Positions 1,551 to 49,563 of a stretch of DNA of 64,000 nt are shown here, piece after piece. Every line of letters begins with the position of its first letter. Positions within the stretch are counted from its first letter, which is position 1. This DNA comes from Minisyncoccota bacterium (GTDB lineage Bacteria > Patescibacteriota > Minisyncoccia > Phycocordibacterales > Phycocordibacteraceae). Both the position numbers and the translations under genes were made by a program. The stretch lies in contig DASPLI010000001.1 in NCBI GenBank assembly GCA_035627655.1, positions 523,509 through 587,508 on the forward strand, read 5' to 3'. The notes below the pieces were generated by a model. That model was given only the letters and a program-made list of their open reading frames with translations, was not told the origin of the DNA and made no database searches.

Positions 1551-1918
1551 TATATTCGGATTCAAAAGGATATTGGACTCCGCCAGGTGGTGGGGTGGAA
1601 GAGGGCGAGGATGTTCGGACTGCTGTCCGGCGCGAAGTACAGGAGGAGACGAATATGAAGGTGCTCAAACAGCGCTTCATTGGTTGCCAGGATATATCTG
1701 AGCCAAAAGGAGTTGTCTCGCAGGCTCGATCAGTTTGTATTGTTGAACCCTATGGCCCGTTCGTCAGCGATCCGGATGGTGAGGCAACCAAGATTGAATT
1801 GATTGATCCGAAGGACTATAAAAAATATTTTGACTGGGGAGAGATCGGGGACCACATCATGCAACGTGCTTTAGAATTGAAAGCACAAATGGATTCGGAA
1901 ACGAATTACGTAAACTAA
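1523..1918 (+). CDS. Nudix hydrolase, N-terminally short (TTG start), possibly truncated
   Basis: Nudix box GGGVEEGEDVRTAVRREVQEETN only about 20 aa from the N-terminus; TTG start; in a different frame from the upstream NTPase fragment. Confidence 0.55.
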   Translation: MFCGDKLVLVYSDSKGYWTPPGGGVEEGEDVRTAVRREVQEETNMKVLKQRFIGCQDISEPKGVVSQARSVCIVEPYGPFVSDPDGEATKIELIDPKDYKKYFDWGEIGDHIMQRALELKAQMDSETNYVN

Positions 1919-7693: not shown

Positions 7694-7770
7694 GGTTATC
7701 TCCTTCAGTTCTGGTCAGACCCTATCATACGTGCCTGCAAGGTTCTACTGCCTAGGATACATTTGCTATA

Positions 7771-14237: not shown

Positions 14238-14486
14238 AGATGTTAGTTGCCCGTTAGTTACTGGGTAAGTGAGTGAATAATGGGTGTTGTCCGAGGGTCA
14301 ACGATAGTGTGAATGGGAAATGCGCATCGACCGCAGGTCGCACTCCACAGGGCCTAATTCTTTATGAATCGTAGTGAACAAGAAGTGAATTCAGAAGTTG
14401 TAAATATTCACTGCGTTCTCACATGTGATACACACGAATTACACAATGCGCTCATTACATATAAATTACGCGTCAATTTCTGTGTT

Positions 14487-32954: not shown

Positions 32955-33959
32955 TTAGGCACGCATCGAAGTGATGAACGTTTGGACCGTGTCCATGTTG
33001 CTCGCCAGCCAGCTGCCGCCATAGACGGCGCCGATGCCAAGTCCAACAGTGATGACGCCGTACGCGATCGCGCTCTTGGGCGAGATCTCGTAGATCTTCT
33101 CGACAATGTAGAGGAGCGAGAAGATCGCCGCGATATAGAGCAGCGTTCCTTCGTTGGCCATGACGCCAGCGTAGAGACCGCCGCCAAAAACCGCGATGGC
33201 GAAGACTTGGCGCAAGGCGTAGTGCATGGAGCGCTTTCCGTCGTTCCCGTACCAGCGACTTGCGATGATCAGCATGCCCACGCCCGCGCACAGCGTACCC
33301 ATCCAGAATGCGCCAGATTCGAAGACCTGGAGCACGGGGACGGAGACGTTGTACACCTGGAGCGTCGCGAACGTTCCTGCAAGCAGGATCGACGCGACGG
33401 TTGCCGCCGGAATCTTGTCCTCGCTGTCCCAGCCGATGGCATAGGATAATCCGCCGCCGATGGCCGAGAAGCCAAGCAGGTGGAGGAAGGCGAGAACGGC
33501 CAAAAAGCCGATCGACACGCTCGTGAGCGTCATCGCGAGAATGCCCCAGACGATCAACAAGATCGCCGAGTACACCCACGCCGGGCCGTCGCTGTCTCCA
33601 AGCAGTGCAAGCAGCGCCGGCGCGAAGATGACCGCGCCAATGAAGCTTGCGACTGCGCCGGGGAACAGGTTCGTTGCCCAGTCAGGCGCCAGGAAGCCGT
33701 AAGCAACCAGGAGACCGCTGAGGACGAGACCGATGAAGCCAAGCATCTGCTTCGACCAGTCAAGGGCGAAGAGACGGCTCAAGAGAACGCCGGTGCCGCC
33801 CAAAATGAGGACGCCGCCGAGGAACCAGAGGACCCCCGGACCGTCGACATAGCCGACCAGCTGTTGGGCTGGCGACAATTCGGGGCAGACCGTATCAGCA
33901 AAAGCGAGACTGGGGGCGAAAACCCCAAGCATCGCTAAGAAGGCAAATAACCTTCCCAT
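32955..33959 (-). CDS. polytopic membrane protein with signal peptide
   Basis: Signal peptide LAFADT, then about 10 hydrophobic helices. Confidence 0.45.
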   Translation of the reverse strand: MGRLFAFLAMLGVFAPSLAFADTVCPELSPAQQLVGYVDGPGVLWFLGGVLILGGTGVLLSRLFALDWSKQMLGFIGLVLSGLLVAYGFLAPDWATNLFPGAVASFIGAVIFAPALLALLGDSDGPAWVYSAILLIVWGILAMTLTSVSIGFLAVLAFLHLLGFSAIGGGLSYAIGWDSEDKIPAATVASILLAGTFATLQVYNVSVPVLQVFESGAFWMGTLCAGVGMLIIASRWYGNDGKRSMHYALRQVFAIAVFGGGLYAGVMANEGTLLYIAAIFSLLYIVEKIYEISPKSAIAYGVITVGLGIGAVYGGSWLASNMDTVQTFITSMRA

Positions 33960-34069
33960 ATCGTTCCTTTCACTCAAAAGAACTTCCGTGTGTGGAAGCC
34001 GGGGAATATGAAGCCATATATACAGTGAATAGTCAAGGAATGGGATCATGCATTTGCTATACTCCGCAC

Positions 34070-36133
34070 ATGGCGAATTTCAAGCTCCATGTGCCGTTCC
34101 CGCCGGCAGGCGATCAGCCAGAAGCAATCAAGAAACTGACCGAAGGCCTCAAGCAGGGTCTGCGGCATCAGACGCTACTTGGAGCGACCGGTACTGGTAA
34201 GACATATACGGCAGCTAACGTCATTGCGGCGTTTGATAAGCCAACCTTGGTTTTAGCGCACAACAAGACCTTGGCCGCACAGCTTGCGCAGGAGTACCGG
34301 GAGTTTTTCCCGGAGAACGCGGTGCATTATTTCGTTTCCTACTACGACTACTATCAGCCGGAGGCATATATCGCGCATTCGGATACCTATATTGAAAAGG
34401 AGGCCCAGATCAACGCGGAGATTGATCGGTTGCGGCATGCAGCAACCCAGGCGCTTCTTACCCGTCGCGACGTTATTATTGTTGCTTCCGTCTCTGCCAT
34501 TTACGGTCTTGGTTCTCCTGAGCAGTACGAGAAGGTGCATGTAAAGCTTCTCAAAGGTGGGAAAGAGGATCGAGCGTCGCTTATCCGTCGTTTGATCAGC
34601 ATCTACTTTGAGCGTACGAATGCCGATCTTGAGCCAGGCAAGATTCGTGCGGTGGGGAACGCGATTGAATTCATGCCGGTCAACGAGCGATCCATCTACC
34701 GCGTTCGTTTTGATGGGGAAGTTATTGCTTCGATTGAGTGCTTGGATCCGGTGTCGCGCGCGCTCACAAAGGAAGTCGATTCAGCATTCATCTTCCCTGC
34801 CAAACACTTCGTAACAAGCGAGGACGAACGCAATCGCGCCCTAGAAGATATTCGCGCCGAGCTCGACGAGCAGCTAGAGAAATTCAAACGGGAGGAGAAG
34901 TTGCTTGAAGCGGAACGCATCAAGCGCCGCACACTCCATGACATCGCGCTGATCCGAGAACTCGGCTACACCTCAGGCATTGAAAACTACTCGCGTCACT
35001 TTGATGGTCGTTCTCCGGGACAGCCGCCGCACACGCTCCTTTCGTATTTTCCGCATAAGCGCGATGGGTCGGCCGATTTCCTTACGGTGATCGATGAGTC
35101 GCACGTCACGGTGCCACAGATTGGCGGCATGTATGCCGGAGATCGCTCTCGCAAAGACACGCTTATTGAGCATGGCTTCCGGCTGCCGTCTGCGCGCGAT
35201 AACCGTCCGCTTACCTTCGAAGAATTTGAAGCGCGCGTGGACCAGGTGATCTACACCTCAGCAACGCCCGGTCCGTACGAGAAAGAACATAGTGTTCCGC
35301 CAGGCGGTCAGGTGGTCGAGCAGATCATTCGCCCGACGGGTCTTGTGGATCCTGAGCTTGTCGTGCGCCCCATTGCGCAAGCAGGCGAATACATCGGACA
35401 GGTAGCAGACTTTATCGCAGAGACAGAAATGGTGATTGAGCGTGGTGGTCGCGCAATCGCAACTACGCTCACGAAGCAGATGGCGGAAGATCTTGCAGAT
35501 TTCCTCAAAGAACGGAAGATCAAAGCGGAATACCTCCATTCGGACATCAAGACGATTGAACGTATTGAGATTCTGACCGCGTTTCGTAAGGGTGAGTTCG
35601 ATATCTTGGTCGGCGTGAACCTGCTTCGCGAAGGACTCGACCTTCCTGAGGTTGAGCTCGTAGGCATTCTGGACGCCGATAAAGAAGGCTTCCTGCGTTC
35701 AGAAACATCGCTTATTCAGACGATAGGGCGCGCAGCACGCAACGTGCTTGGGCGCGTGATTCTTTATGCGGACGTCATGACCGGGTCGCTTGAGCGCGCA
35801 ATTTCAGAGACAAATCGTCGACGCGCGATCCAGCTTGCCTATAACGAGAAGCACGGCATTACGCCAGAGACAATCCGCAAAGAAATCAAGGACATTGCCG
35901 CGTCGATGCGTACCGAGCATCAGAAGACGGTAGACGAGCTACTTATGCTTGATGCGCGCCTGTATAAGGAAGATCCGAAAGAGTTCATCAAACAAAAGCG
36001 ACAGCAGATGGCAGAAGCGGTCGAGGCGCTCGACTTTGAAACAGCTGCACTCATCCGCGATGAGATTTACGCGCTTGAGGGAAACGGACCGGCTAAAAAA
36101 CCGAAGCGCACGCGAAAACCCCTCAAGGGGTAG
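34070..36133 (+). CDS. uvrB: excinuclease ABC subunit B
   Basis: GATGTGKT Walker A, DESH, helicase motifs, C-terminal UVR domain; TATACT 6 nt upstream of the ATG. Confidence 0.9.
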   Translation: MANFKLHVPFPPAGDQPEAIKKLTEGLKQGLRHQTLLGATGTGKTYTAANVIAAFDKPTLVLAHNKTLAAQLAQEYREFFPENAVHYFVSYYDYYQPEAYIAHSDTYIEKEAQINAEIDRLRHAATQALLTRRDVIIVASVSAIYGLGSPEQYEKVHVKLLKGGKEDRASLIRRLISIYFERTNADLEPGKIRAVGNAIEFMPVNERSIYRVRFDGEVIASIECLDPVSRALTKEVDSAFIFPAKHFVTSEDERNRALEDIRAELDEQLEKFKREEKLLEAERIKRRTLHDIALIRELGYTSGIENYSRHFDGRSPGQPPHTLLSYFPHKRDGSADFLTVIDESHVTVPQIGGMYAGDRSRKDTLIEHGFRLPSARDNRPLTFEEFEARVDQVIYTSATPGPYEKEHSVPPGGQVVEQIIRPTGLVDPELVVRPIAQAGEYIGQVADFIAETEMVIERGGRAIATTLTKQMAEDLADFLKERKIKAEYLHSDIKTIERIEILTAFRKGEFDILVGVNLLREGLDLPEVELVGILDADKEGFLRSETSLIQTIGRAARNVLGRVILYADVMTGSLERAISETNRRRAIQLAYNEKHGITPETIRKEIKDIAASMRTEHQKTVDELLMLDARLYKEDPKEFIKQKRQQMAEAVEALDFETAALIRDEIYALEGNGPAKKPKRTRKPLKG

Positions 36134-36148
36134 GGTATACTGAAGCGC

Positions 36149-37684
36149 ATGTCGGCAGAGAAGCCTCCGCGCAAAAAGACAACGGATCCGTTGGCGAAGC
36201 AGGTGGTGCTTGGTATTGGCATTGCAGCTGCAGCGGGCGGCGCAGATGCGCTCCACGATCATTTTGAAGTGCAAAAAGAAGAAGCGCTTGTACAGCAGTC
36301 CGCGCTTGAGCGCCCGGGGGAATTGCTCCAGTTCTACACACAGCATCCGTATGCCATGCAACGGCAAGACATACCGATGGTAATTGAGGCGATGCAGCGA
36401 CATAAGCCGCACGAAGCTGATCAGGGCGAAGAGTTGGGTGTCTATATTCCGCTCCGGCTTGAGGTCTTCCAAAGCCTTGTAGAGCGGGCTCGGTTTGATG
36501 AGGCAGCGCGGGAGATTCTCTCTGCACTAGAAGAGCAGGCACCGCTTTCTGCCCGGGAGATTCTCATGCTGCATCGGAGCTCATTTCTCCTAGACGCAAG
36601 ATTTGCTCTTGAGAACTATACGAATGCAACAAACTGGGCTGAAGGTCCTGAACGATATACCGATGAGGTATTCGAGCTTATCCGAGGAAATACAGCTCTG
36701 GGTACAATCGAGCAGCGCGCTCATCTCTCGATGCTTGCCAGCCACTTTATTTACTACGAAAACAGTGTCTATCAACCAAGTCGCACCGGAACTGACGCCT
36801 TTGGCGAATGGTACAGATCTGGATACTACTCCCATAACGTTGTTTCCATTACACCCGAACTTGTAAATTCTGTGCTTGAGTGGCTCCAAGAGCGTCGAGA
36901 AGAACTTGGCGGACAGGAGGTGTTCAACCCTACCATCATCGCGTTTTATGGAAACGAACGAAATGAAGACGGCAGCCAACGGTTTGGTAATGAATACTTC
37001 CATAACGAACTTCAAGCGCGCTCCACAACACTGCATGAGTTTCGAGGTGCGGACAGCGAAGAAGATCGACAGCAGCTTGAGCGGCATCTGCAGCACATTG
37101 AGACAGCAACGACACCAATCACCGTGGTTTTTGACTCGCACGGCGGGACCACCGGCATTTGGCTTACGGGAGATTTCAGCTCTGTTAAAGAGGCATCGGG
37201 GAATGAGTTAGTAGTTAGGGCAGAAATGATTGCACAGTCATTTATTCAGCGATATCGAAACCCAGAACTGCGCGCGCAAGCAAATGCACATCCAGATGTG
37301 GTGGTTTTCGATAACTGCTTCGGCGGCGACATTATTCGCCTTGTGAGCAGGCAGCTCATGGAAGCGGGTCTTCCGATCCCTGCATTCGTGAGCACTTCAG
37401 AAGCTGGTACGTATGGGTATGGAAATTTGTCCGCACCGACTGGCTCGCAAATGGAAAACATCCTCTTCGATAAAGACCATCCAACACTTAGTGATGTGGC
37501 GGACGCAGATCTTGCGCCACGAGATCTCACCAATCCCAACCGGCTCATGGGAGATTTTGTCGTCATCCCTGCTCGGCAAGCGCATGAAATTCCCGATACT
37601 GAGGATCGAAACGGTCAGCGTATGACCGTCGTGGACGAGTCGGTACAGATTTCGGAAAACGAGTCAGACACCGCTCTTGGATAA
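36149..37684 (+). CDS. hypothetical protein (511 aa) between uvrB and uvrA
   Basis: no recognised family; internal TVVFDSHGG / VVVFDNCFGG paired motifs. Confidence 0.4.
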   Translation: MSAEKPPRKKTTDPLAKQVVLGIGIAAAAGGADALHDHFEVQKEEALVQQSALERPGELLQFYTQHPYAMQRQDIPMVIEAMQRHKPHEADQGEELGVYIPLRLEVFQSLVERARFDEAAREILSALEEQAPLSAREILMLHRSSFLLDARFALENYTNATNWAEGPERYTDEVFELIRGNTALGTIEQRAHLSMLASHFIYYENSVYQPSRTGTDAFGEWYRSGYYSHNVVSITPELVNSVLEWLQERREELGGQEVFNPTIIAFYGNERNEDGSQRFGNEYFHNELQARSTTLHEFRGADSEEDRQQLERHLQHIETATTPITVVFDSHGGTTGIWLTGDFSSVKEASGNELVVRAEMIAQSFIQRYRNPELRAQANAHPDVVVFDNCFGGDIIRLVSRQLMEAGLPIPAFVSTSEAGTYGYGNLSAPTGSQMENILFDKDHPTLSDVADADLAPRDLTNPNRLMGDFVVIPARQAHEIPDTEDRNGQRMTVVDESVQISENESDTALG

Positions 37685-37741
37685 TGCTACTTGAAGGGAG
37701 GGCAAGAGCCTGCTAGCGTTGCAGGTAGAAAGGAACAGCTC

Positions 37742-37990
37742 ATGTCTAGCACCCTGTTCGTGTTCGCACCGTTTATCGCGGTGACGATCGTGTTTATCCT
37801 TGCTAAGAAAGCCAGCCCGCTTGGCGCTATGGTTCTGGGCGCTGCTGGCGTACTGGTGGGTGGCGCTCTCGGCTCGTACGGCTGGATGCAGCTCGGTTAT
37901 AGCGAGACGCATGCGTACGCGCTTGGCTATCTGACGACGTTCGCTTATGCCTTCATCTTGGCTATATTGCGGCGCCGGTACAACTTATAA
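37742..37990 (+). CDS. small membrane protein
   Basis: 82 aa with three hydrophobic segments. Confidence 0.3.
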   Translation: MSSTLFVFAPFIAVTIVFILAKKASPLGAMVLGAAGVLVGGALGSYGWMQLGYSETHAYALGYLTTFAYAFILAILRRRYNL

Positions 37991-38083
37991 GCGGAGTCAC
38001 TAACTCCGCTTTTTGTTTGGAAAACTTGTGTAGTCGCGGGGGAGAACCCTGTTTGCTATACTCCATACTGTACCTGTCCCGCC

Positions 38084-40735
38084 ATGGGCAGGGCATTTCC
38101 GTACATGGCAAAATCGAAGAAAACACACGAACACTATACGGGCGAAGACTGGATCCGGATCAAGGGCGCCCGGACCCACAATTTGAAGAACCTCTCGGTC
38201 GATTTGCCGCGTGGGACTATGACCGTACTTACCGGCCTATCAGGCTCAGGCAAGTCCTCGCTTGCATTCGATACTATTTTTGCCGAAGGACAGCGACGGT
38301 ATGTCGAATCGCTTTCGGCATACGCCCGCCAGTTCCTGAATCAAATGCAGAAGCCGGATGTAGATGAGATCTCCGGTCTTTCCCCGGCTATTTCCATAGA
38401 TCAGAAATCCCGCTCGAACAATCCGCGCTCCACGGTTGCTACCGTCACGGAAATCTATGACTACCTGCGCGTCCTTTATGCGCGCGCCGGTCAGCCGTAC
38501 TGCGTCAACCACGACGTACCCATTTCCAAGCTTTCCAAAGAAGAAATGATCGGAATGGTCATGAAGCGCATCAGCGCCCGTTCAGCAAGCAAAAAAGAGG
38601 AGGTTGCAGGTGTGGTTATCGATAAAAGCCAGGTGGTTATTTATGCGCCAGTTGTTGTTGGCCGCAAGGGCGAGTATTACCAACTCCTCTATGACCTGCT
38701 TGGTAAGGGGTACGAGCGGGTGGTCGTGGACGGTAAAATGCAGTCGCTTCGCGAAAAGGTAACGCTGGATCGCAATAAGAGGCACGATATTGATGCCGTC
38801 GTAGACTCTATTTTCGTTTCCGAATTCGAACGCAGTCCAGATGCAGCTCGAGAGCGCCTTTCAGAAGCACTTGAGCTTGCGCTCAAGGAAAGCGACGGGC
38901 TCGTAAAGATTCAGCATGCGGATGGTTCTGTTGAGACATTGTCCGCCCGCTTTATTTGTCCGGAGGACGGCGCTTCGTTCCCCGAAGTAGAGCCACGCCT
39001 GTTTTCGTTCAACAGCCCCTATGGCGCTTGTCCAACTTGTAACGGCCTTGGCACTGAATCCCTGTTCTCAGACAAGGTATGTCCGGTCTGTAATGGCCAG
39101 CGGCTTCGTCCGGAAGCACTGCGCGTTTACTTGCGCGATACCAAAGATAAGACGCTGGGGAAAAACATTGTTTCGGTTGCGAGCATGTCGATTCGCGACG
39201 CCAAGGACTTCATGGATAACCTCCATCTCTCAGAGATGCGTGCCGAGATTGCCGCGCCTATCATTCGCGAAATCACGAGCCGGCTTGAGTTCATGTTGAA
39301 CGTCGGTCTTGATTACCTCACGCTTGATCGCTCTGCTGCAACGCTCTCCGGCGGCGAGGCACAGCGCATTCGCCTTGCGTCCCAGCTTGGTACGGGGCTT
39401 GTTGGCGCTCTCTACGTGCTTGATGAGCCGACCATTGGACTGCATCAGCGCGATAACGATCGCTTGATCAAGACACTCCTTTCTTTGAAAGAGCTCGGAA
39501 ACACCATTCTGGTGGTCGAGCACGACGAGGACACCATTTTCTCTTCAGACTACATTGTCGACATTGGCCCAGGTGCTGGCGTGCATGGCGGCAGTGTTGT
39601 TGCTGCAGGATGGCTCGATGAACTCCTGACTGCGCCGAAGAATGATTCTGGTTCGCTCACGCTGTCCTACTTGCGTGGCGAGAAGGAGATTGCCGTTCCG
39701 GAGGAGCGTCGTACGAGTGAAAAGGGAGCGATCAAGATCAAGGGCGCAACGCTACATAACATCAAGAATCAGAACGTGGATGTGCCACTGGGGAAGTTGG
39801 TATGCATTACCGGTGTCTCTGGATCGGGAAAGTCCACCTTCCTCTATGACATTCTCCATAAGAATGCTGCGGCACGCTTTGCATCTCGTACCGCAACTCC
39901 AGAACACATCGCCAGCATGACCGGGACGGAATATCTGTCTCGCACTGTGCTTATCGATCAGTCTCCGATTGGTCGCACGCCGCGCAGTAACCCGGCCACG
40001 TACACCGGTGCGTTTACGCATATTCGAGACTTGTTTGCCTCTACCGCAGAGGCGCGTGCACGCGGCTGGAAACCGGGGCGCTTCTCCTTCAACGTTGCCG
40101 GCGGACGCTGCGAGGCGTGCCAGGGCAATGGCATGATCGCGGTAGAGATGCACTTCCTGCCCACCGTATACGTCACCTGTGATGTTTGTAACGGCAAGCG
40201 CTTTATGAAGGAAACGCTTGAGGTCACCTATCGCGGTAAGAATATCTACGAGGTGCTCCAGATGACCATAGAAGAAGCGGAAAAGTTTTTTGAAGACATT
40301 CCTGCCATTTCCGAGCGGTTGCAGACCCTCAACTCGACTGGTCTTGAATATCTGACACTCGGACAGTCTGCAACCACGCTCTCCGGCGGCGAGGCGCAGC
40401 GCGTGAAGATTGCATCAGAGCTATATCGTCCAACAACGATGAAAACCCTCTATCTGCTTGATGAGCCGACGGTTGGTCTCCACTACGAGGATGTACGCAA
40501 GCTTATCGAGATTCTCCAGGAACTCGTACGGCGCGGAAATACCGTTGTCGTGATCGAACACAATCTTGATCTCATCAAGTGCGCTGACTACATCATTGAT
40601 TTTGGTCCTGAGGGTGGTACGGGCGGTGGGAAGGTGGTTGCAAAGGGTACGCCGGAAGAAGTTGCAGAAGTGGATGGCTCACACACTGCGCTATACCTGC
40701 GCAAGGTGTTGCGCAAGCGCAAGACTAAGAAATAA
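38084..40735 (+). CDS. uvrA: excinuclease ABC subunit A
   Basis: Two ABC ATPase modules, zinc fingers CPEDG...CPTC and C..C...C..C, LSGGE signatures; alternative start at 38105. Confidence 0.9.
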
Positions 40736-40743
40736 TAGAGTGC

Positions 40744-41136
40744 ATGGAGGGGAAACCCGACAACACAGAGCGCGGGCCTGCTGCGCCGGATGTACGGCTT
40801 GATCTTGGTTCAGGCGACTTGGGTGGCCAAGGAAAATACATTCTTGCGGAAGTAGTACACCAACAGGGAGGAAAGACGTTGGCGCTCCGGGCAGACAGCT
40901 CCTGCACACAGCACTATCAAATAGCGGAGAAGCTCAAGGTTGAGTATCCCGATGCAGAGATCAAGGTGCTCGGTGGAGGATTTCTGGCATATTTTGGTCC
41001 AGAGATTGGAAACGAGATTGAGGTATTTGACGTAAGTACCAAATACGGAAAAGAAGATCGTGAGGTTACCAAACAACTTCTTGCTGAAGCGTTTCCAGAT
41101 CGGACGATTACGGAGCTTCCGACCAGTACGCAGTGA
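40744..41136 (+). CDS. hypothetical protein
   Basis: 130-aa ORF immediately after uvrA. Confidence 0.35.
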   Translation: MEGKPDNTERGPAAPDVRLDLGSGDLGGQGKYILAEVVHQQGGKTLALRADSSCTQHYQIAEKLKVEYPDAEIKVLGGGFLAYFGPEIGNEIEVFDVSTKYGKEDREVTKQLLAEAFPDRTITELPTSTQ

Positions 41137-41166
41137 CGGCCGCCCAGGGAGGAGCGGCCGTTTTCA

Positions 41167-41418
41167 TTAGTTCTTGTTATGCGCGCGCAGTGCGATGTGG
41201 GATCCGATCAGGGTTGCAACCATGATCGTGATTCCGACGTACAGCAGGGGAATGAATTCCTTCCCGATGTACAGGAGCGGAATCGATACCGCGAGCGTCG
41301 CAAAGATGGTTCCCCAAAAGTAGAGAACGGTTCCTTTGCGGAGCCAGATGCCGCACGCAATCCGCGTGACAGCACCCACTGTTAGCGCAATCAGAATGAG
41401 CAAGAGAAACTGCTGCAT
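41167..41418 (-). CDS. small membrane protein
   Basis: 83 aa, three TM. Confidence 0.35.
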   Translation of the reverse strand: MQQFLLLILIALTVGAVTRIACGIWLRKGTVLYFWGTIFATLAVSIPLLYIGKEFIPLLYVGITIMVATLIGSHIALRAHNKN

Positions 41419-41856
41419 TTCAACCTCTCTGTCTTATGCCGAATATAAAAGTGACACACGTGGTATAAAAAGTCAAAAGAAACATGAGCGGCAGTTGCCG
41501 CTCATGTTCATCGACGTAGAGCCTGAGTTCGCTTGCGCAAGATCGGGTACCCCTCCTTGAAGAGCGCATCCCAACGCGTGTCGTCTGGCCCGTGTGGCGC
41601 TTCGCCATGGTGCCGGATAAATACGTCTCGCCAAAAAACTGGACTCGTGGTCAGTCCATAAAGTCCATGCGGCTTGAAGCGACGAATCGCTTTACGTATT
41701 ACTCGTTCTAACGTCGGAGGTCCAAAAAACCAGACCATATTCCCTCCTCTTAGTACACTCCAAAGCCTCAGTATAGCAGGGCGAGGTAGTCCACGGTTGC
41801 CGTTGTCCACGGAAGGGTCTATAACAAGAGGTAGAGGCAAAAGAAGGAGAGTAGTT

Positions 41857-42669
41857 ATGATGCCACGTACCTTGACCTGGGTGCGTCACGGGGAATCCGA
41901 GGGAAATTGGGCTCGCACGCTTGCAGAAGCAGGCCAGGCCCATGCGCGGGAAGCCGATCTTATGAGCGTCCATACCTGCGAACGCCGTTTGACCGAGAAA
42001 GGAGTCGAACAGGCAAAGCGCGCCGGAGCATGGCTGCGCAAGCATTGGGACGGCAACACTGCCTCGCCGGAAGATCGACAATTCATTGTCTCGCCCTATG
42101 TTCGCGCGATTGAAACCGCGGGACACTTGGGACTTGATGGTCGGTGGATCCAGGATACGCGCGTTGTTGAGCGCAACTGGGGCACCATCGACAGCCATAC
42201 GTACGAACAACGTATCGCGCTCTTTGGCGAGCAGCTTGAAGACCGCAAAAGTGAAGCGTTCTTCTGGCGCCCGGCAGACGGCGAAACGCTACAGGATGTG
42301 TTCAACCGCATCCGTGCGTTTCTCGACACGATGCGTCGTAAGTGCACCAACAAGCACGTCCTGGTGGTATGCCACGGCGAAACCATGTGGGCAGTCCGGT
42401 ATTTGCTTGAATACTGGACGCCGCAGAAGCTCGCCGACGAGATGCAGACCCGCAACAACCAGACTCGTCTCATCAATTGCCGCATCGTCCAGTACGTGCG
42501 CGATAACGATGACGAGTTTGGGCCGAAGTTCGACCGTGTCCGCTTCATCGACCCTTCGAATCCGGATGATCCGGAACGAAATCGTGATTGGAAGCGGATC
42601 ACGCGCCCGACCTATTCGAGTGAAGAACTCATCGATATGGCCGAATCGCGCCAACGATTCCTCGTGTAA
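41857..42669 (+). CDS. histidine phosphatase family protein (phosphoglycerate mutase-like)
   Basis: LTWVRHGESEGN RHG motif; AAGGAGA RBS; ATG at 41857 inside the longer track ORF. Confidence 0.7.
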   Translation: MMPRTLTWVRHGESEGNWARTLAEAGQAHAREADLMSVHTCERRLTEKGVEQAKRAGAWLRKHWDGNTASPEDRQFIVSPYVRAIETAGHLGLDGRWIQDTRVVERNWGTIDSHTYEQRIALFGEQLEDRKSEAFFWRPADGETLQDVFNRIRAFLDTMRRKCTNKHVLVVCHGETMWAVRYLLEYWTPQKLADEMQTRNNQTRLINCRIVQYVRDNDDEFGPKFDRVRFIDPSNPDDPERNRDWKRITRPTYSSEELIDMAESRQRFLV

Positions 42670-42741
42670 AGCTCTTTTCGCCCCGAAGCAACGCGCTTCG
42701 GGGCGCTTTCTTTGCCCTGTTGGTTTCTGTAGGATAGGTAT

Positions 42742-43998
42742 ATGGAACGCGCTCAGCTTGCGGCTCTTGATCTTCCTGACTGCCCGGGCGTGTATTTGTT
42801 TACCGCTGGAAAAGGCAGGAAGAAAGAAATTCTGTATGTCGGGAAAGCGACTTCGCTTCGCGATCGCGTGCGCTCGTATTTCGATATTGACCTTATTTCG
42901 ACGCGTGGTCCACGGATCGTCGACATGGTCACCAAGGCAGAAACCGTGACGTATGAGACGGCACCGACGGTACTTGAAGCCCTGGTGCGGGAAGCAGCGC
43001 TCATTCGGCAGTATCGCCCGAAGGCAAACGTCGAAGGGAAGGACGATAAAACCTTTTTGTACGCAGTGATTACCAAGGAGGAGATTCCGCGCGTGCTTGC
43101 CATACGCGGCAAGGATATCGATTTCACGCATATGTGGATGGAGGGCGATGTAAAGCTTGCAGCAACGTATGGACCGTTTACCTCAGGGTATCAGCTGCGC
43201 GAGGCACTCCGTCTCATTCGTCGTATCTTCCCGTTTTACGACACGCCTCGGCCGGTCGGCGAAGGAAATAAGCATCTTCTTGCGAAAGTCGAATTCAATC
43301 GACAGATCGGCCAGTATCCCAAAGACATGAGCCGGAGCGAATACATGCGCTCGATCAGAAATGTCGGCCTCTTTCTCTCTGGCCGGGTAAAGACGCTTCG
43401 CGCGACTCTGGAGCGGGATATGAAGAAGGCGGCCAAAGAGGAACGGTTTGAGGACGCGGCGGTCTGTCGTCGTCAGCTGTTTGCACTTGATCATGTGCAG
43501 GATGTATCTCTGATTCGCGAAGATCGTGACACGGAAACGGAAGCGCCGCGAATTGAAGGCTATGACACTGCGCATATTTCCGGCACGAACGCTATTGGCG
43601 TCATGACCGTTATCGAGGGCAGCCAGCCGCAAAAGAAGGAATATCGCACCTTTCGTATTCGCGGCTATGGCGGCAAGTCGCTCAACGACGACATTGCCTC
43701 TTTGAAGGAAATTCTTCGACGACGCTTTGGACACCCGGAATGGCCGTACCCAAAGGCGATCGTGGTGGACGGCGGCTCAACGCATAAGAAGGCGGCCGAG
43801 TCCGTGCTCGAGGAGCTCGGTATTCAGATTCCGGTCGCAGCAGTCGTTAAAGATGAAAAACATCGCCCACGAGAGGTGATTGGTTCGCTACGAGCCAAAG
43901 TGTCAGACGCGGACGCGGTGTTGGTAAATGCGGAGGCACACCGCTTTGCCCTCCAGCGGCACCGTTTTGCTCGCCGCAAAAGCATGCGTACCTACTAG
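42742..43998 (+). CDS. uvrC: excinuclease ABC subunit C, short form lacking the C-terminal HhH domain
   Basis: GIY-YIG N-terminus (GVYLF...ILYVGKA), UVR motif, RNase-H-like endonuclease block (IEGYDTAHISG); only 418 aa. Confidence 0.75.
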   Translation: MERAQLAALDLPDCPGVYLFTAGKGRKKEILYVGKATSLRDRVRSYFDIDLISTRGPRIVDMVTKAETVTYETAPTVLEALVREAALIRQYRPKANVEGKDDKTFLYAVITKEEIPRVLAIRGKDIDFTHMWMEGDVKLAATYGPFTSGYQLREALRLIRRIFPFYDTPRPVGEGNKHLLAKVEFNRQIGQYPKDMSRSEYMRSIRNVGLFLSGRVKTLRATLERDMKKAAKEERFEDAAVCRRQLFALDHVQDVSLIREDRDTETEAPRIEGYDTAHISGTNAIGVMTVIEGSQPQKKEYRTFRIRGYGGKSLNDDIASLKEILRRRFGHPEWPYPKAIVVDGGSTHKKAAESVLEELGIQIPVAAVVKDEKHRPREVIGSLRAKVSDADAVLVNAEAHRFALQRHRFARRKSMRTY

Positions 43999-44016
43999 TT
44001 GTTATACTGGCTGCAT

Positions 44017-44979
44017 ATGCGCGGCACGATCGTCGGGGTACTTCGAGGAGGTCCGTCACGGGAGCACGAGGTGTCTCTCAAGACAGGACATGCGATTTTG
44101 ACCAATCTGCCGGCCGAGCGCTACACCGTGCGCGATATTTACATCGACAAAAAAGGGAATTGGCATGTGTTTGGGCGCCCGGCGACTCCTGAGGCCGCAC
44201 TTCGGTCTTTGGACGTAGCAGTAATTGGATTGCATGGGGAGTACGGCGAGGATGGCGAGGTGCAGCGCCTTCTGGAGCGTTTTGGCGTGCCGTATACAGG
44301 GTCTGAATCCTTCCCTTCCTATCTCGCCATGCATAAGGTTATGGCGAAGGAGAAGGCGATTGAGCATGGGGTGCTGACGCCGCGCTACACCTACATTGAG
44401 CCGGGAGTAGATGTTGATGCAATTGCGACTGAAATTGTCCGAACATTTCATCAGCCGGTAGTGGTAAAGGCAGTACGTTGGGGTTCATCCGTTGGCGTCT
44501 CCATTGTTGGCGGGTATGAAGACATCAAGAAATCTATTTACACCTTGTTGCCAGACGCGGGTGGCGTACTGATTGAAGAGCTGATTCGCGGACGGGAGGC
44601 GACCGCGGGCGTTGTTGAGGGTCTCCGGGGCGAATCGCTGTATGCGCTGCCCGCTATTGAGATCGTGCCGCCCTCTGAAGATTTCTTTTCATACGACGCG
44701 AAGTACTCCGGGAAGACGCGGGAGATTTGTCCGGGACGTTTCTCGACCGCAGAGAAGCGCGAGCTTGAGCGGCTTGCTCGGGTGATGCACCAGGCGCTTG
44801 GATTGCGCCACTATTCGCGCTCTGACTTCATCGTCTCCTCGCGCGGCATCTATTACCTTGAGACCAATACGCTTCCTGGTATGACGACGGAGTCGCTCCT
44901 ACCCAAATCGCTTGCTGCAGTCGGCGTGCAGTTCCCAGATTTCCTCGAACACCTTATCGGCCTTGCACGACGCCCATGA
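44017..44979 (+). CDS. ddl: D-alanine--D-alanine ligase
   Basis: ATP-grasp motifs; VLRGGPSREHEVSL N-terminus. Confidence 0.85.
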   Translation: MRGTIVGVLRGGPSREHEVSLKTGHAILTNLPAERYTVRDIYIDKKGNWHVFGRPATPEAALRSLDVAVIGLHGEYGEDGEVQRLLERFGVPYTGSESFPSYLAMHKVMAKEKAIEHGVLTPRYTYIEPGVDVDAIATEIVRTFHQPVVVKAVRWGSSVGVSIVGGYEDIKKSIYTLLPDAGGVLIEELIRGREATAGVVEGLRGESLYALPAIEIVPPSEDFFSYDAKYSGKTREICPGRFSTAEKRELERLARVMHQALGLRHYSRSDFIVSSRGIYYLETNTLPGMTTESLLPKSLAAVGVQFPDFLEHLIGLARRP

Positions 44980-45305
44980 GTCTCGCGCACAAGAAATGCA
45001 AACCGTGTGATGGCGAGATAGAGAAGCTTTCGCCGGAGATGGTTATAGAGATGATGGCGCAAGTGCCGGAGTGGACGCTCTCAGAAGACGGAGTTCGGAT
45101 CAGCCGGAAATTCGCCTTCAAGGATTTTGCCCGGGCGCTCGCGTTTACGGACGCGGTAGGGAAGCTCGCCGAGGAGGAGTGGCACCATCCAGACATACAT
45201 CTGTCTTGGGGGCAGGTGGAAGTGACCTTCTATACCCACTCCATTCGGGGTCTAGCTGAGAACGACTTTATTATGGCTGCCAAGGTCGACCAAATTCCAC
45301 GGTAG
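44976..45305 (+). CDS. 4a-hydroxytetrahydrobiopterin dehydratase (PCD/DCoH)
   Basis: EEEWHHPDI motif; 4-nt overlap with the ddl stop. Confidence 0.8.
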   Translation: MSLAHKKCKPCDGEIEKLSPEMVIEMMAQVPEWTLSEDGVRISRKFAFKDFARALAFTDAVGKLAEEEWHHPDIHLSWGQVEVTFYTHSIRGLAENDFIMAAKVDQIPR

Positions 45306-45324
45306 TGCTATACTCCCCGGCATT

Positions 45325-45397
45325 GGGCCCATAGCTCAGTTGGTAGAGCACCTCATTTGCAATGAGGGGGTCAGGAGTTCGAATCTCCTTGGGTCCA
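45325..45397 (+). tRNA. tRNA-Ala (anticodon TGC)
   Basis: Cloverleaf folded by hand; G3:U70; anticodon loop TTTGCAA; CCA not encoded. Confidence 0.85.
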
Positions 45398-45408
45398 CCC
45401 CAGAAAAC

Positions 45409-45438
45409 AAAAGACGCCGCACAGGCGTCTTTTGTTTT
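45409..45438 (+). terminator. rho-independent terminator after tRNA-Ala (GACGCC-GCACA-GGCGTC + TTTTGTTTT)
   Basis: hairpin plus T-run. Confidence 0.7.
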
Positions 45439-45505
45439 AGATACCCTCTCATTGACTTCGTGCCGCATCTGTAATTTACTCTCCTTTGGTCAACGGGAGG
45501 TAAGC

Positions 45506-45694
45506 ATGCAATACGGCATGGTCATGTGTTCTTCGCACGTTCCGTGCGGGGACGGTTCTGTTACGGTTGCTCGCAACCGCAAGCATCGTAAGCGCCGGCA
45601 ACACAAGATTCGTCACAACTTCTGGAAGCGCTCGCTCGACCGCATGATTAGCAAGCGGTTGTGGCAGGCGCGTCGCAAGCGGCTTGTGACGTAA
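45506..45694 (+). CDS. small highly basic Cys-containing protein
   Basis: GGGAGG RBS 5 nt upstream; 62 aa; about 35% Arg/Lys/His. Confidence 0.35.
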   Translation: MQYGMVMCSSHVPCGDGSVTVARNRKHRKRRQHKIRHNFWKRSLDRMISKRLWQARRKRLVT

Positions 45695-45748
45695 CCACCG
45701 AAGTACAAGACCGCCTGACTCTCTAGGAGTTGGGCGGTTTTTCATATA

Positions 45749-45777
45749 TTGACAATAATACATATATTATGCATAAT
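45749..45777 (+). promoter_or_regulatory. sigma70-like promoter TTGACA-N17-CATAAT upstream of the lipoprotein gene
   Basis: consensus -35 and a good -10 about 30 nt before the RBS. Confidence 0.5.
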
Positions 45778-45808
45778 AGTGAGCGAGTTGAACCTTGGGA
45801 GGTGCTCT

Positions 45809-46117
45809 ATGAAAAAGTTGTGGTTTGCTGTTTGCAGTCTCTTCGTGCTTGCTGCCTGCGGTTCGCCGCCAGTGCAGACTGCCGAGGAGATCGCTGCTGA
45901 AGAAGCGGAGACCGTGGAAACGGATATGAACTTCGCACAGCAGGTCGTCGACGAGCTGATCTATGTTCGCAGCTCGACGGCGAATCTCTGCTACGCCGTT
46001 TCTGCGCGGTTTTCGCGCCAAAGCACCTACGACTATGATGAAAACGGCCGCGTTCGTGCGTACGCAGACATCAGAGCTGTGGTGCCGTGCGACAGCGTCC
46101 CCACTCTCGCAAACTAA
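45809..46117 (+). CDS. lipoprotein
   Basis: MKKLWFAVCSLFVLAACGS lipobox; GGGAGG RBS. Confidence 0.55.
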   Translation: MKKLWFAVCSLFVLAACGSPPVQTAEEIAAEEAETVETDMNFAQQVVDELIYVRSSTANLCYAVSARFSRQSTYDYDENGRVRAYADIRAVVPCDSVPTLAN

Positions 46118-46176
46118 CCGCCCGACTCACGAGGATCGTCCGATCTTCACAGGTCGGGCGGTTCTCTTATATATCC

Positions 46177-46205
46177 TTGACAGATATTTTGATTTACCGA
46201 ATAAT
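46177..46205 (+). promoter_or_regulatory. sigma70-like promoter TTGACA-N17-AATAAT upstream of the CPBP gene
   Basis: preceded by an 11-bp inverted repeat AACCGCCCGAC...GTCGGGCGGTT (46116-46163). Confidence 0.45.
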
Positions 46206-46241
46206 CTTCGCTAGTCCAACTGTAACCGAAAGGAGGTTGCA

Positions 46242-47129
46242 TTGCGTACCTTATACGACGAAGACGAGCTCACGCTGCGCATTATTGCCAGCCAGTTTCT
46301 GCTTGCGGGCTTTATCGCAGTAGGACTGATTGGTGTGGCGATCAGCGAGCACTTTTGGCCCAACTTCTTCCAGTATCGCTACTTCTACGTGTCTCCGAAC
46401 TTTTTGGAGGATGTAGGTCGATACTGGCCGCTGTTCGCCTACGCCGGCGTATTCGCCGTTCTTACCATTCTTGCGGGTCGAAACTCCGACCACCGAGATG
46501 GGGAGCGGTTTATCATCGGCATTGGCACATCGGTTGGCGCCGGAGTGCTTGAGGAGGGTTGGTATCGCTGGGTTGGCGTGTTTTACAGCATGCTCTTCCT
46601 GGTGTTGCTGAACTTCCTCTTCTCGGCGTTTGGCTGGGGGATCGTTGTTGCGGCCGGCATTGCAATTCTGTTCACGATCGCGTCCTTCTTCATCGGTGAT
46701 GTGGATCTCAATCCCGCTACCGTGATCGGCCGCATCCTGCTCATCGCGCTCTTTGCGCTTGCGGGCTGGGGAGTCATGGCCATCAACCATGACCCTGTGT
46801 ACTGGGTGTACCTGCACATCTTCGTGCCGGTCATCGACTTTGCGACGTTCGGCCTCATGCATTCGGCCCTCCACGCCAACCACCAACCACTCCTGGTCAT
46901 GGGTCTCATCGCGGCGAACTTTGCGTTTCGCGATGGACACAAGTACCAAGGACTCTACGGCTGGGTGAACTCGTGGTACATCGGCTGCGCTATGACCTAT
47001 GCGACCCTCACCTACGGTCTTGCGGTTGCAGTTGCGGTGCACGCCCTCTACGACATCATCTTCGATGTTGCTCAGTACATCGCTGCCAAGCGCAGCATGC
47101 CTCGTCTTAGGCGCATCTCACGCATTTGA
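46242..47129 (+). CDS. CPBP-family intramembrane metalloprotease (CAAX protease-like), TTG start
   Basis: LEEGWYRW (EExxxR), FGLMHSALH (FxxxH) and HALYD motifs; AAGGAGG RBS 5 nt before the TTG. Confidence 0.6.
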   Translation: MRTLYDEDELTLRIIASQFLLAGFIAVGLIGVAISEHFWPNFFQYRYFYVSPNFLEDVGRYWPLFAYAGVFAVLTILAGRNSDHRDGERFIIGIGTSVGAGVLEEGWYRWVGVFYSMLFLVLLNFLFSAFGWGIVVAAGIAILFTIASFFIGDVDLNPATVIGRILLIALFALAGWGVMAINHDPVYWVYLHIFVPVIDFATFGLMHSALHANHQPLLVMGLIAANFAFRDGHKYQGLYGWVNSWYIGCAMTYATLTYGLAVAVAVHALYDIIFDVAQYIAAKRSMPRLRRISRI

Positions 47130-47217
47130 GACGACACACGGGCGGTCCTACCAAGGATCGCCCGTGCTCTGTTTAATTAAAGAAGAAGCGTCACGGAAAA
47201 TCCGTGACGCTTTTCGC

Positions 47218-48363
47218 TTATCGAGCTGAGATGTAGCCGCCGTCTACGCCGTCCGGGGAAAGGACGGTCTGTGCAACGCCGATTCCGTTTGACCGGAATC
47301 CGCCTGCACACTGCAGGAGGTAGTACTCCCACATGCGCGCAACGCGTTCGCCGTACTTAGCGACCACCTCCTCCCGCCGGCTCTGAAAGTTATCGTTCCA
47401 GGCCATAAGGGTGAGGTCGTAGTGCGGACCGATGTTTTGCACATCCTCGACGACAAAGAGTCCTTCCACTGCGGTCATGATCTGACCGATGGTGGGGAGC
47501 TCGCCGCGCGGGAAGATGTACTTATCGAGCCAGGGATCAATGGTCTTGGAGCGCTTCCGGCCCGTGATGGTGTGGTGCATGAAACGACTGTGGCGTCCGC
47601 GCATGGCTCGGCGTGCCGCCGCGAAATAGTCGCGGTAGTTGTCGCTGCCCACATGTTCGAACATGCCCATCGATACCACGTGGTCCACTGTGCCTTTGAA
47701 TTCACGGTAGTCCTGGAATCGAAACTCAAGATGGCCGCTATCGACGTACGGGCGATACCGCTCAGTCGCATACGCCACCTGGTCCTGGGAAATCGTGACG
47801 CCGATGCATCGCGCGCCATAGTGTTCTGCAGCGAAGCCCATAAAGGCGCCCCAGCCGCAGCCGATATCCAGCACCGTCTGGCCGGGTTTCAATTCAATCT
47901 TCCGGCAGACCAAATCGAGCTTGCGCTCCTGCGCCTCGTCTACGTCCGCCGCATCTACCCAATACGCACAGCTGCCAGTGAGGCGTTGATCGTACGTGGA
48001 TTCATGCAGCATGCGTTCGTCATAGTGCATTTTGCCGACGTAACGAGCGCGCTCGATCGTCTGGCGGTTAATGAACTTGGCACCGAGCGCAAAGACACCC
48101 GCTTTGAGAGCGATCTGCGGAAACGACTTTACCGCCTCCTGGACGTTGTGACGCACGACCCGCTCAAAGAGCTGGTCAAGCGCTTGGCACGTCCAGAGGC
48201 CGTCCATATAGGCCTCTCCAAGTCCGATGGAGCCGCCGGAGAGGAGGCGAGAGTAGAACTCGTCATCTCGAACCTGCGGATCCCACGGATTGGGACCGTT
48301 GATAACGATCCCGGAACCTGTCTCATCGAGCAGGCTCTGGATCGTCTTCTGTACGTTACTCAT
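47218..48363 (-). CDS. cfa: cyclopropane-fatty-acyl-phospholipid synthase family SAM-dependent methyltransferase
   Basis: VLDIGCGWG SAM motif and CFA synthase blocks; start MSNVQK with GGAG RBS. Confidence 0.8.
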   Translation of the reverse strand: MSNVQKTIQSLLDETGSGIVINGPNPWDPQVRDDEFYSRLLSGGSIGLGEAYMDGLWTCQALDQLFERVVRHNVQEAVKSFPQIALKAGVFALGAKFINRQTIERARYVGKMHYDERMLHESTYDQRLTGSCAYWVDAADVDEAQERKLDLVCRKIELKPGQTVLDIGCGWGAFMGFAAEHYGARCIGVTISQDQVAYATERYRPYVDSGHLEFRFQDYREFKGTVDHVVSMGMFEHVGSDNYRDYFAAARRAMRGRHSRFMHHTITGRKRSKTIDPWLDKYIFPRGELPTIGQIMTAVEGLFVVEDVQNIGPHYDLTLMAWNDNFQSRREEVVAKYGERVARMWEYYLLQCAGGFRSNGIGVAQTVLSPDGVDGGYISAR

Positions 48364-48424
48364 TGAAGGATCTCCTGTATCCCGAGGTAATGGATAACGT
48401 AGTTGTATTCTTTTGTCTAGGAGA

Positions 48425-48814
48425 TCAGTTGCGCCCGAAATCGTCTTCGTAACGAATAATATCGTCCTCGCCAAAATAGTCGCCGAGCTGCACCTCAATA
48501 ATCACCAAAAGCTCTTCGCCAGGATTCATGACCCGGTGTTTTGTTCCTTGTGGGATAGAGATGTGGTCGGCAGGGGAGAGTCGTGATTGTTGCCCATCGA
48601 GCTCCACCTGTGCGACTCCAGATACAACACTCCACAGTTCGTGCCGACGCGCATGACTTTGCAAGGAAAGACGCTTCCCGGGTTCTATTTCAAGCCGCTT
48701 TACCTTGTGCGTAGGCGTATCCGAAAGAATGCAGAAACGCCCCCAGGGCCGCTCTTCAATGTATCCATCCTGGGACGGCATATGCATGAGAAAAGTATAG
48801 CTCTCGGGCTTCAT
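48425..48814 (-). CDS. cupin-domain protein (mannose-6-phosphate isomerase type II C-terminal-like)
   Basis: RPWGRF...LEI.PG...SLQSH..R.E.W.VV.G cupin motifs. Confidence 0.6.
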   Translation of the reverse strand: MKPESYTFLMHMPSQDGYIEERPWGRFCILSDTPTHKVKRLEIEPGKRLSLQSHARRHELWSVVSGVAQVELDGQQSRLSPADHISIPQGTKHRVMNPGEELLVIIEVQLGDYFGEDDIIRYEDDFGRN

Positions 48815-48820
48815 ATAAAA

Positions 48821-48855
48821 AACTTGTGTATGTTGTGTGAACAACTACACAACTT
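48821..48855. promoter_or_regulatory. candidate LexA operator: nested inverted repeats AACTTGTGTA...TACACAACTT and GTTGTGT-N8-ACACAAC overlapping the lexA -35 region
   Basis: palindrome read directly; -35 TGAACA / -10 TACACT follow, with the ATG 6 nt after the -10. Confidence 0.5.
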
Positions 48856-48873
48856 TTCTGGTACACTAGGCAT

Positions 48874-49563
48874 ATGTCGAGAAACGAGAGTCTAACCAGA
48901 GCCCAAGAAGAGACCCTTTTCCTTATCAAGCGTTACATCGCCCGCCATGGACAGTCACCAACCATCACCGAGCTACAAAAAGAGCTGGCTCTCCGCTCTA
49001 TTCGGAGTGTTACGCAACGTCTGGAAGCCCTGGAGAAGAAAGGCTTCATTGCTCGAGATCGATTTCAGCACCGAAGCATCAAAGTTCTGGCGTCAGTAAA
49101 GAACGAATACATCCCGTCGGACTTCGTTGCCGTTCCGGTCATCGCCTCAGCTGGCTGTGATGCGATGGAGGTGTACGCACAGGACGAGTTTGGTGAATTC
49201 ATTGCAGTTGATCGCACGCTTCTTGGTCGCGCTACTTCAGTCGCTGCCATCAAGGCCATTGGCGACAGTATGCAGGATGCAGGGATTATGGACGGCGACT
49301 ACGTCATTGTTGAAGTTACCGACCAGGTGAATGACGGAGATCGTGTCGTTGCCATCATTGGCAATATGGCGGTCATTAAGCGCCTTACGCATGTAAAAGG
49401 CACTGCGGTCTTGTGCCCGGAAAACGAAGCAGCAAACTATCAACCGATCGTTGTTTCGCAGGAGGATTCGAAGATTTTCGGTAAGGTGCTCTCTGTCATT
49501 CCCAATACGGAGTGGGTAGACGACGTAAAGATCGAGTACTACGACGGATTCGGGCCGAAATAG
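48874..49563 (+). CDS. lexA: LexA repressor
   Basis: N-terminal winged HTH; S24 peptidase Ser (GDSM) and Lys dyad. Confidence 0.85.
   Translation: MSRNESLTRAQEETLFLIKRYIARHGQSPTITELQKELALRSIRSVTQRLEALEKKGFIARDRFQHRSIKVLASVKNEYIPSDFVAVPVIASAGCDAMEVYAQDEFGEFIAVDRTLLGRATSVAAIKAIGDSMQDAGIMDGDYVIVEVTDQVNDGDRVVAIIGNMAVIKRLTHVKGTAVLCPENEAANYQPIVVSQEDSKIFGKVLSVIPNTEWVDDVKIEYYDGFGPK

Follow-up and report, generated by a model that had tools for sequence, protein, structure and literature searches.

The window, by which we mean the whole 64,000-nucleotide stretch of DNA that was analysed, encodes LexA together with UvrA, UvrB and a UvrC-like protein. Pfam searches confirmed uvrB (34070–36133), uvrA (38105–40735) and the uvrC-like gene (42742–43998), and relatives share the order tgt-uvrB-(kinase, regulator)-uvrA-uvrC-ddl-...-lexA. 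The uvrC-like product has 418 aa, with UVR and UvrC RNase H domains and no GIY-YIG domain at E <= 1e-5 (Pfam), and the genes of relatives are equally short (414–452 aa). The features discussed below are as follows.

14415–14446, minus strand: candidate third operator, TTGTGTAAttcgTGTGTATcacaTGTGAGAAC; three head-to-tail TGTG units with an exact 11-bp period; intergenic
38023–38046, plus strand: candidate LexA site at the uvrA promoter, AACTTGTGTAG-TCGC-GGGGGAGAA; exact 10-mer common to lexA
38054–38062, plus strand: uvrA promoter, extended -10 TGCTATACT; generic promoter type
38105–40735, plus strand: uvrA coding sequence, 876 aa from the annotated start; Pfam UvrA_inter and ABC_tran
48425–48788, minus strand: cupin / mannose-6-phosphate isomerase C-terminal domain gene, divergent from lexA; Pfam MannoseP_isomer, 5e-31
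48821–48831, plus strand: predicted operator unit 1, AACTTGTGTAT; core TGTGTA at 48825–48830; most conserved element upstream of lexA
48832–48844, plus strand: predicted operator unit 2, GTTGTGTGAACAA; overlaps the proposed -35 TGAACA
48846–48855, minus strand: predicted operator unit 3, AAGTTGTGTA on the minus strand; inverted, one mismatch from unit 1
48859–48867, plus strand: lexA promoter, extended -10 TGGTACACT (sequence reading); ends 6 nt before the ATG
48874–49563, plus strand: lexA, 229 aa; Pfam LexA_DNA_bind and Peptidase_S24

The lexA product combines an N-terminal winged-helix domain (PF01726 LexA_DNA_bind, 8.4e-16) with a C-terminal S24 domain (PF00717 Peptidase_S24, 2.8e-22; Pfam search). 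In an alignment with E. coli LexA, the Ala-Gly pair at which LexA cleaves itself (A93-G94) and both residues of the catalytic dyad, S132 in GDSM and K169 in VIKR, fall in invariant columns. The 229-aa protein is 100% identical to one named LexA in a Candidatus Paceibacterota MAG, and its LexA relatives all come from Parcubacteria, Kaiserbacteria or Paceibacterota MAGs. By domain content and catalytic residues, the gene at 48874–49563 is a canonical LexA repressor.

The lexA promoter described in the sequence-only reading is present. Its -10 hexamer, TACACT (48862–48867), carries a TG in front (TGGTACACT) and stops 6 nt short of the ATG, and TGAACA, proposed as the -35, occurs at 48838–48843. 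TG(C/G)TAnnnT is found at the same place in orthologous lexA promoters, 6–7 nt before the ATG. The position of the -10, from which the start was placed, implies that the lexA mRNA would be leaderless. The TACACT hexamer is one mismatch from the inverted operator unit, and several close relatives have TACACA or TGTGTA between the lexA -10 and the ATG. On the other strand, the probable -10 of the divergent cupin gene is TATACT (48795–48800, minus strand; sequence reading), which would place operator unit 1 near the -35 of that gene.

A block shared by uvrA and uvrB, TTTGCTATACTCC, had also been read as SOS related. It does occur at 38052–38064 and 34053–34065, but it is a generic extended -10 element and is specific neither to SOS control nor to uvr genes. 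Within one mismatch, TTGCTATACT is found 11 times in the window against 1.7 expected, and it is not specific to uvr genes because it fronts unrelated genes and a tRNA; TTTGCTATACTCC was therefore rejected as an SOS-specific block. In five cases a promoter of the TTGCTATACT type lies 6–8 nt before an ATG, and, as previously read, 6 nt separate the uvrB -10 (TATACT) from the ATG at 34070. As read from the window, TTTGCTATACT is the general (housekeeping) promoter of the organism, and many of its mRNAs are probably leaderless. Copies of the generic extended -10, (T)TGCTATACT, lie at 7763, 20552, 29961, 34054, 38053, 41770 (minus strand), 43999, 45305 and 61566, and one of these promoters precedes the tRNA at 45325–45397.

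Direct repeats upstream of lexA

The sequence-only reading described a nested palindrome immediately upstream of lexA. Its components are in place, with AACTTGTGTA at 48821–48830 and TACACAACTT at 48846–48855. The inner repeat, GTTGTGT-N8-ACACAAC (48832–48853), is a perfect inverted repeat and occurs once in the 64-kb window, but the outer arms, AAAACTTGTGTA and TACACAACTTTT, are complementary at only 11 of 12 positions, and their AACTT ends form a direct rather than an inverted repeat. The region can also be read as three units, two arranged head-to-tail (48821–48844) and one inverted (48846–48855), which together span about -53 to -19 relative to the inferred leaderless start. Unit 2 is readable either as TGTGTG at +9 from unit 1 (48834–48839) or as TGTGAACAA at +11 (48836–48844). 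This position over the lexA promoter would suit an autoregulatory SOS operator, as had been proposed (sequence reading).

The 10-mer AACTTGTGTA has four matches with at most one mismatch against 1.9 expected, which is not significant alone, and TTGTGTA occurs seven times against 6.6 expected, so that a single TTGTGTA unit is uninformative without its flanks or its conservation. Among relatives, the regions upstream of 79 lexA loci from species-representative genomes were read. In a core set of 45 loci, whose LexA proteins are 55–81% identical to that of the window, 150 nt upstream of lexA were searched. The 15-mer TTGTGTAT(G/A)TTGTGT is present with at most four mismatches in 44 of the 45 and is perfect in 22 loci. 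Upstream of lexA, the first 19 bases, AACTTGTGTATGTTGTGTG, hardly vary in 44 of 45 related genomes, whereas the flanks cannot be aligned; with its A-rich flank, the conserved element across the core loci is aAAgTTGTGTATgTTGTGTg.

A 19-mer matrix (27-bit) was built from the sites of the other genomes, with the window excluded. It scores 34.0 of a possible 34.6 at 48821–48839, and the next-best score in the window is 13.4; in shuffled sequences the best scores average 10.3 and reach at most 19.1. The 13.4 match (13904–13922) lies within a repetitive Ser/Gly-rich gene and inside the shuffle range, and was set aside as noise. Across 598 kb of related loci, nearly every match to the matrix is upstream of lexA, with one strong exception, in L027 (Parcubacteria C7867-008). 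That chance alone produced the palindromes and the shared 10-mer in this intergenic DNA would fit the unremarkable 10-mer count (4 against 1.9) and the uvrB resemblance described below, which is not conserved. This explanation is hardly credible: the score from a matrix made without the window far exceeds the shuffle maximum and the 19-mer is kept in 44 of 45 orthologous promoters, and together the conservation and the matrix scores effectively refute it.

As read from these alignments, the conserved feature is a head-to-tail repeat of (A/G)(G/C)TTGTGTAT units and not a palindrome. Across 49 lexA promoters the consensus of unit 1 is aAAgTTGTGTAT, and a TGTGTA-like hexamer (at most one mismatch) follows at +9 in 41 and at +11 in 30 of them. 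Periods of 9 and 11 bp thus both fit the sequence for the second unit, and the pairing of units within a dimer is likewise ambiguous. Relatives carry further units downstream, either TGTGTA or TGTGGATAA at +21/22 or GTTGTGTATT at +30. Two or more half-sites in the same orientation and about one helical turn apart are therefore present, as in LexA sites of the direct-repeat class. The inverted copy, TACACAAC (TACACA), is found in close relatives only, where the gap between TGTGTA and TACACA is -2, 2, 2, 5, 6, 6, 6 or 14 nt. Because the inverted arm is limited to the closest relatives and its spacing varies, the palindrome appears to be a local arrangement of units and not, as had been suggested, the recognition geometry; the GTTGTGT-N8-ACACAAC geometry is peculiar to the window genome.

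The distance between unit 1 and the ATG differs among relatives (about 50, 60, 72 or 84 nt), while each promoter keeps its own extended -10, which argues for an operator rather than a fixed or core promoter element. The gene upstream of lexA also differs: the cupin gene occupies this place in the window, and other genomes have a small ORF, a pterin dehydratase or a photolyase gene there, so that the predicted operator travels with lexA and not with the cupin gene. The repeat also changes with LexA lineage. A LexA clade only 41–46% identical to the window protein has the same repeat, 45–54 nt upstream of lexA, and the Lipton- and Harrisonbacteria clade carries GTATATAtTGTATATA in place of the TGTGTA-type repeat. 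The LexA recognition helix reads SPR(S/A)(I/V)(S/T)QYL versus S(I/L)RSVTQRL, differing for the Lipton- and Harrisonbacteria proteins. The suggestion of a lineage-specific SOS box held up, in that the element is unlike the E. coli and Gram-positive boxes.

A metagenome scan for STTGTGTATRTTGTGT gave at least 120 matching stretches, and four of the matches listed have a LexA gene downstream while the others resemble background. As a route to the regulon the scan was useless, since the matches listed were mostly background; among them, it revealed the second LexA clade that uses the motif.

Candidate sites at uvrA and elsewhere

Within the window, the regulon could be assessed at uvrA, uvrB and uvrC; recA and the polymerase genes lie outside it. 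The 10-mer AACTTGTGTA recurs exactly at 38023–38032 upstream of uvrA, as originally noticed, and is conserved in lexA-bearing relatives. Counted from the predicted start (near 38069), the candidate site covers roughly positions -46 to -23, with its TGTGTA core at about -42 to -37, over the -35 region. Eleven uvrA loci from relatives were compared. A bipartite element, TGTGTA(G/T)-N4-(K)G(K)GGA(T)A(A) with a gap of 4–5 nt, is uvrA-proximal in six of them (L080, L081, L084, L085, L207 and L209), L208 has a one-base variant, and among the 11 loci the element was not found in L082, L083, L086 and L210. The lexA operators of L003, L005 and L208 have this bipartite form too (TGTGTAK-N4-TGGGGAWAA).

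All relatives with the uvrA element that could be checked carry lexA. In L082, L083 and L086 the syntenic site, lying between the pterin dehydratase gene and the SWIB gene, has no lexA, and none of their contigs came up among the LexA matches. Their UvrA proteins are 86–88% identical and form a single clade in the UvrA tree. Because these three genomes belong to one clade, the correlation between uvrA site and lexA amounts to about one joint loss, in the direction that LexA control would predict, and it suggests that a sister clade lost the SOS repressor and its uvrA target site together.

The uvrA start had been placed at 38084. The annotated start is 38105, and the corresponding database protein (P0121, 876 aa) is 100% identical. 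The leader contains a 7-bp stem with the loop CGCCA(C/T) (38073–38092), conserved in 11 of 11 genomes and with compensatory changes at one base pair (UA, GC, AU); it has no Rfam match, and an Rfam scan of 33800–49000 found tRNA only. The ATG at 38084 sits in the loop of this hairpin, and we therefore take 38105 as the true start.

The element AACTTCCGTGTGTGG, which had been linked to SOS control of uvrB, is present upstream of that gene, though one base from where it was first placed (33981–33995, not 33982–33996). It is absent upstream of uvrB in 11 of 11 relatives and was rejected as a regulon site, being conserved in none of them. The resemblance is probably due to chance, and uvrB appears to lie outside the regulon. 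In several relatives uvrB overlaps or abuts tgt. The core of the element is a small inverted repeat, CTTCC-GTGTGT-GGAAG (33984–33999), which lies between uvrB and a divergent 334-aa ORF without a Pfam match and is not conserved in relatives. In the regions read upstream of uvrC, no TGTGTA-type unit was found.

The pattern TGTGTA-N4-6-TGTGN[AG] occurs three times in the window against 0.185 expected (about 16-fold), once at lexA and twice at 14415–14446, and, apart from these, is seen almost exclusively at lexA and uvrA promoters. The architecture at 14415–14446 is that of the L207 uvrA site. This array lies 178 nt upstream of a gene for a 328-aa Ser/Gly-rich protein with a signal peptide (13251–14237) and no Pfam match.

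The strong matrix match outside lexA promoters, in L027, is a second tandem repeat (1776–1803, minus strand; score 23.7) over the promoter of a small HTH-regulator-like ORF, 2 kb from lexA. Together with the repeat in front of a C5 DNA methylase gene in L116 and the intergenic array at 14415–14446, it might indicate that the conserved repeat is bound by another transcription factor, or is an element of an alternative-sigma promoter, and that the link to lexA is regulatory without being autoregulatory. SOS regulons commonly include regulators and mobile-element genes, which speaks against this reading. The variable distance to the ATG (about 50–84 nt) argues against a core promoter element, as does the extended -10 that every lexA promoter already has. 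The motif is also found at nearly every lexA across three LexA clades, shifting with the lineage, and the uvrA site appears to have been lost together with lexA. We consider another factor improbable, and favour autoregulation by LexA, because the repeat fronts nearly every lexA in three clades, varies with LexA lineage, and has a uvrA counterpart that apparently disappeared with lexA.

DnaA boxes at lexA promoters

The second element of the lexA array resembles a DnaA box (TGTGNATAA), so that another protein might be involved at the site. The LexA unit TGTGTAT is itself close to this relaxed consensus. Perfect copies of the DnaA box TTATCCACA were found in the 150 nt preceding lexA at 18 of 45 and 22 of 30 related loci, compared with eight copies elsewhere in 570 kb. 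At the lexA promoters of relatives such boxes, which occur in either orientation, are about 250-fold enriched. In 23 of 49 lexA promoters, the sequence at +11 from unit 1 differs by at most one base from TGTGGATAA, which is TTATCCACA read on the other strand. In the window itself, TGTGAACAA (48836–48844) matches the relaxed DnaA-box consensus only, and with one mismatch, and the box TTATNCACA is absent from all 64 kb. In the literature searched, no description of a DnaA box at a lexA promoter came up.

In most Parcubacteria relatives the perfect box adjoins the LexA array or is fused with it. The DnaA box adjoins the LexA repeats in L009–L018, L035 and L044, about 50 nt upstream of lexA, and in L046–L078. 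The combination of box and repeat also occurs in L116 (1980–2020 and 6670–6700) and in L212 (535–565), and in L116 the composite precedes the C5 DNA methylase gene as well. In the clade of GW2011_GWC1_45_13 type, lexA is directly followed by a C5 DNA methylase gene and then an HNH nuclease gene (L211 2787–4873; L212 1305–3391), which suggests a restriction-modification-like pair within the lexA operon of this clade.

These boxes could mean that DnaA binds the array as a cluster of DnaA-box-like 9-mers, that lexA and uvrA respond to replication initiation, and that the site is not, or not only, a LexA operator. The frequency of TGTGGATAA-like elements at +11 and the enrichment of TTATCCACA both point in this direction, and the head-to-tail layout of 9-mers spaced by 2 bp is reminiscent of the low-affinity DnaA arrays in E. 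coli oriC. This reading is weakened by the absence of TTATNCACA from the window, which offers only the imperfect relaxed match at TGTGAACAA. The best conserved unit, AAgTTGTGTATg, differs consistently from the DnaA box and shows no drift in that direction. The repeat also differs by LexA clade (TGTGTAT versus TGTATAT) while the perfect box is constant and flips orientation, which points to two proteins. Finally, the uvrA unit is gone in the clade that appears to have lost lexA, whereas DnaA is, to our knowledge, expected in all bacteria. A site for DnaA in place of, or in addition to, the LexA operator is unlikely here. A further variant, which we hold to be doubtful but somewhat less so, is that a single control region serves both DnaA and LexA in these tiny genomes, either jointly or in competition, with TGTGAACAA in the window as a decayed remnant of that arrangement.

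Known LexA motifs and the proposed operator

According to PMC7739468, LexA has repeatedly evolved direct-repeat motifs, with a study in Patescibacteria as an instance (Sanchez-Osuna, Barbe and Erill 2017, Environ Microbiol 19:3465, PMID 28618189, as cited there). Table S2 of PMC8565304 counts the LexA of Parcubacteria GW2011_GWA2_48_9 among the experimentally validated LexA proteins, and a protein search for it recovered only a sister genome from the data set it belongs to. The 2017 motif concerns the same superphylum and the same regulator as the site described here, and belongs to the direct-repeat class according to PMC7739468. In GW2011_GWC1_45_13 (L212), from the same groundwater data set as the validated strain, ACTTGTGTATATTGTGTA lies upstream of lexA; we assume that the published consensus is TTGTGTATGTTGTGT, and the window LexA clade is only 41–46% identical to the L212-type clade. 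As far as the citing papers convey the 2017 study, a direct-repeat LexA site of this kind has already been reported for the superphylum, and the window operator would add little as an SOS box.

The Balneolaeota motif TTACACATATTTTWTACATA, validated by EMSA (PMC7739468), is likewise a direct repeat, and its half-sites on the other strand, TGTGTAA and TATGTA, have the same kind of core as the TGTGTA units here. It differs from the window operator in phylum, in spacing and in its AT-rich linker, and, as presented in PMC7739468, it heads a regulon centred on translesion polymerases, which were not seen in the window. The Alphaproteobacterial box GTTC-N7-GTTC (PMC8565304) shares the head-to-tail arrangement, the 11-bp period and a canonical LexA with the present site, where the +11 reading gives TGTG-N7-TGTG. 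It has a different half-site, whereas here there are more than two units, and an inverted unit in close relatives.

The E. coli box CTGT-N8-ACAG and the Gram-positive Cheo box GAAC-N4-GTTC offer a functional analogy in LexA autoregulation, control of uvrA and position over the promoter. Both are palindromes of fixed spacing, and neither is near lexA or uvrA in the window. In agreement with the sequence-only reading, a scan of the 64 kb found no CTGT-N8-ACAG and three copies of GAAC-N4-GTTC (16478, 23318 and 25307), which are tens of kb from lexA and uvrA, and neither box at the lexA promoter.

Taken together, it is likely that 48821–48855 is a self-repression operator of lexA, of the direct-repeat kind and placed over the promoter, in a Parcubacteria (Candidatus Paceibacterota) genome, with uvrA as a putative second target. 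The sequence itself shows what the gene encodes, that the catalytic residues are kept, how conserved and specific the motif is, and how the promoter is laid out; LexA binding, repression and induction by damage are what we infer. LexA dimers bound to the TGTGTA units would obstruct RNA polymerase over the -35 and the spacer of lexA. Upon DNA damage, RecA would stimulate LexA to cut itself at Ala93-Gly94 by means of Ser132 and Lys169, and repression would be lifted. A weaker bipartite copy over the uvrA -35, TGTGTAG-N4-GGGGGAGAA (38023–38046), could bring uvrA under the same control, and uvrB would stay outside the LexA regulon.

For this uncultured, genome-reduced lineage, the analysis provides an operator model with TGTGTA direct repeats, a leaderless extended -10 promoter and uvrA, but not uvrB, as a predicted further target. 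The comparison also indicates that the recognition element could not be read from the palindromes of a single genome. Potentially weightier are the group-wide association of a DnaA box with lexA promoters and the sister clade that appears to have lost lexA and its uvrA site together. If DnaA and LexA do share the control region, the SOS switch would be coupled directly to the status of replication initiation.
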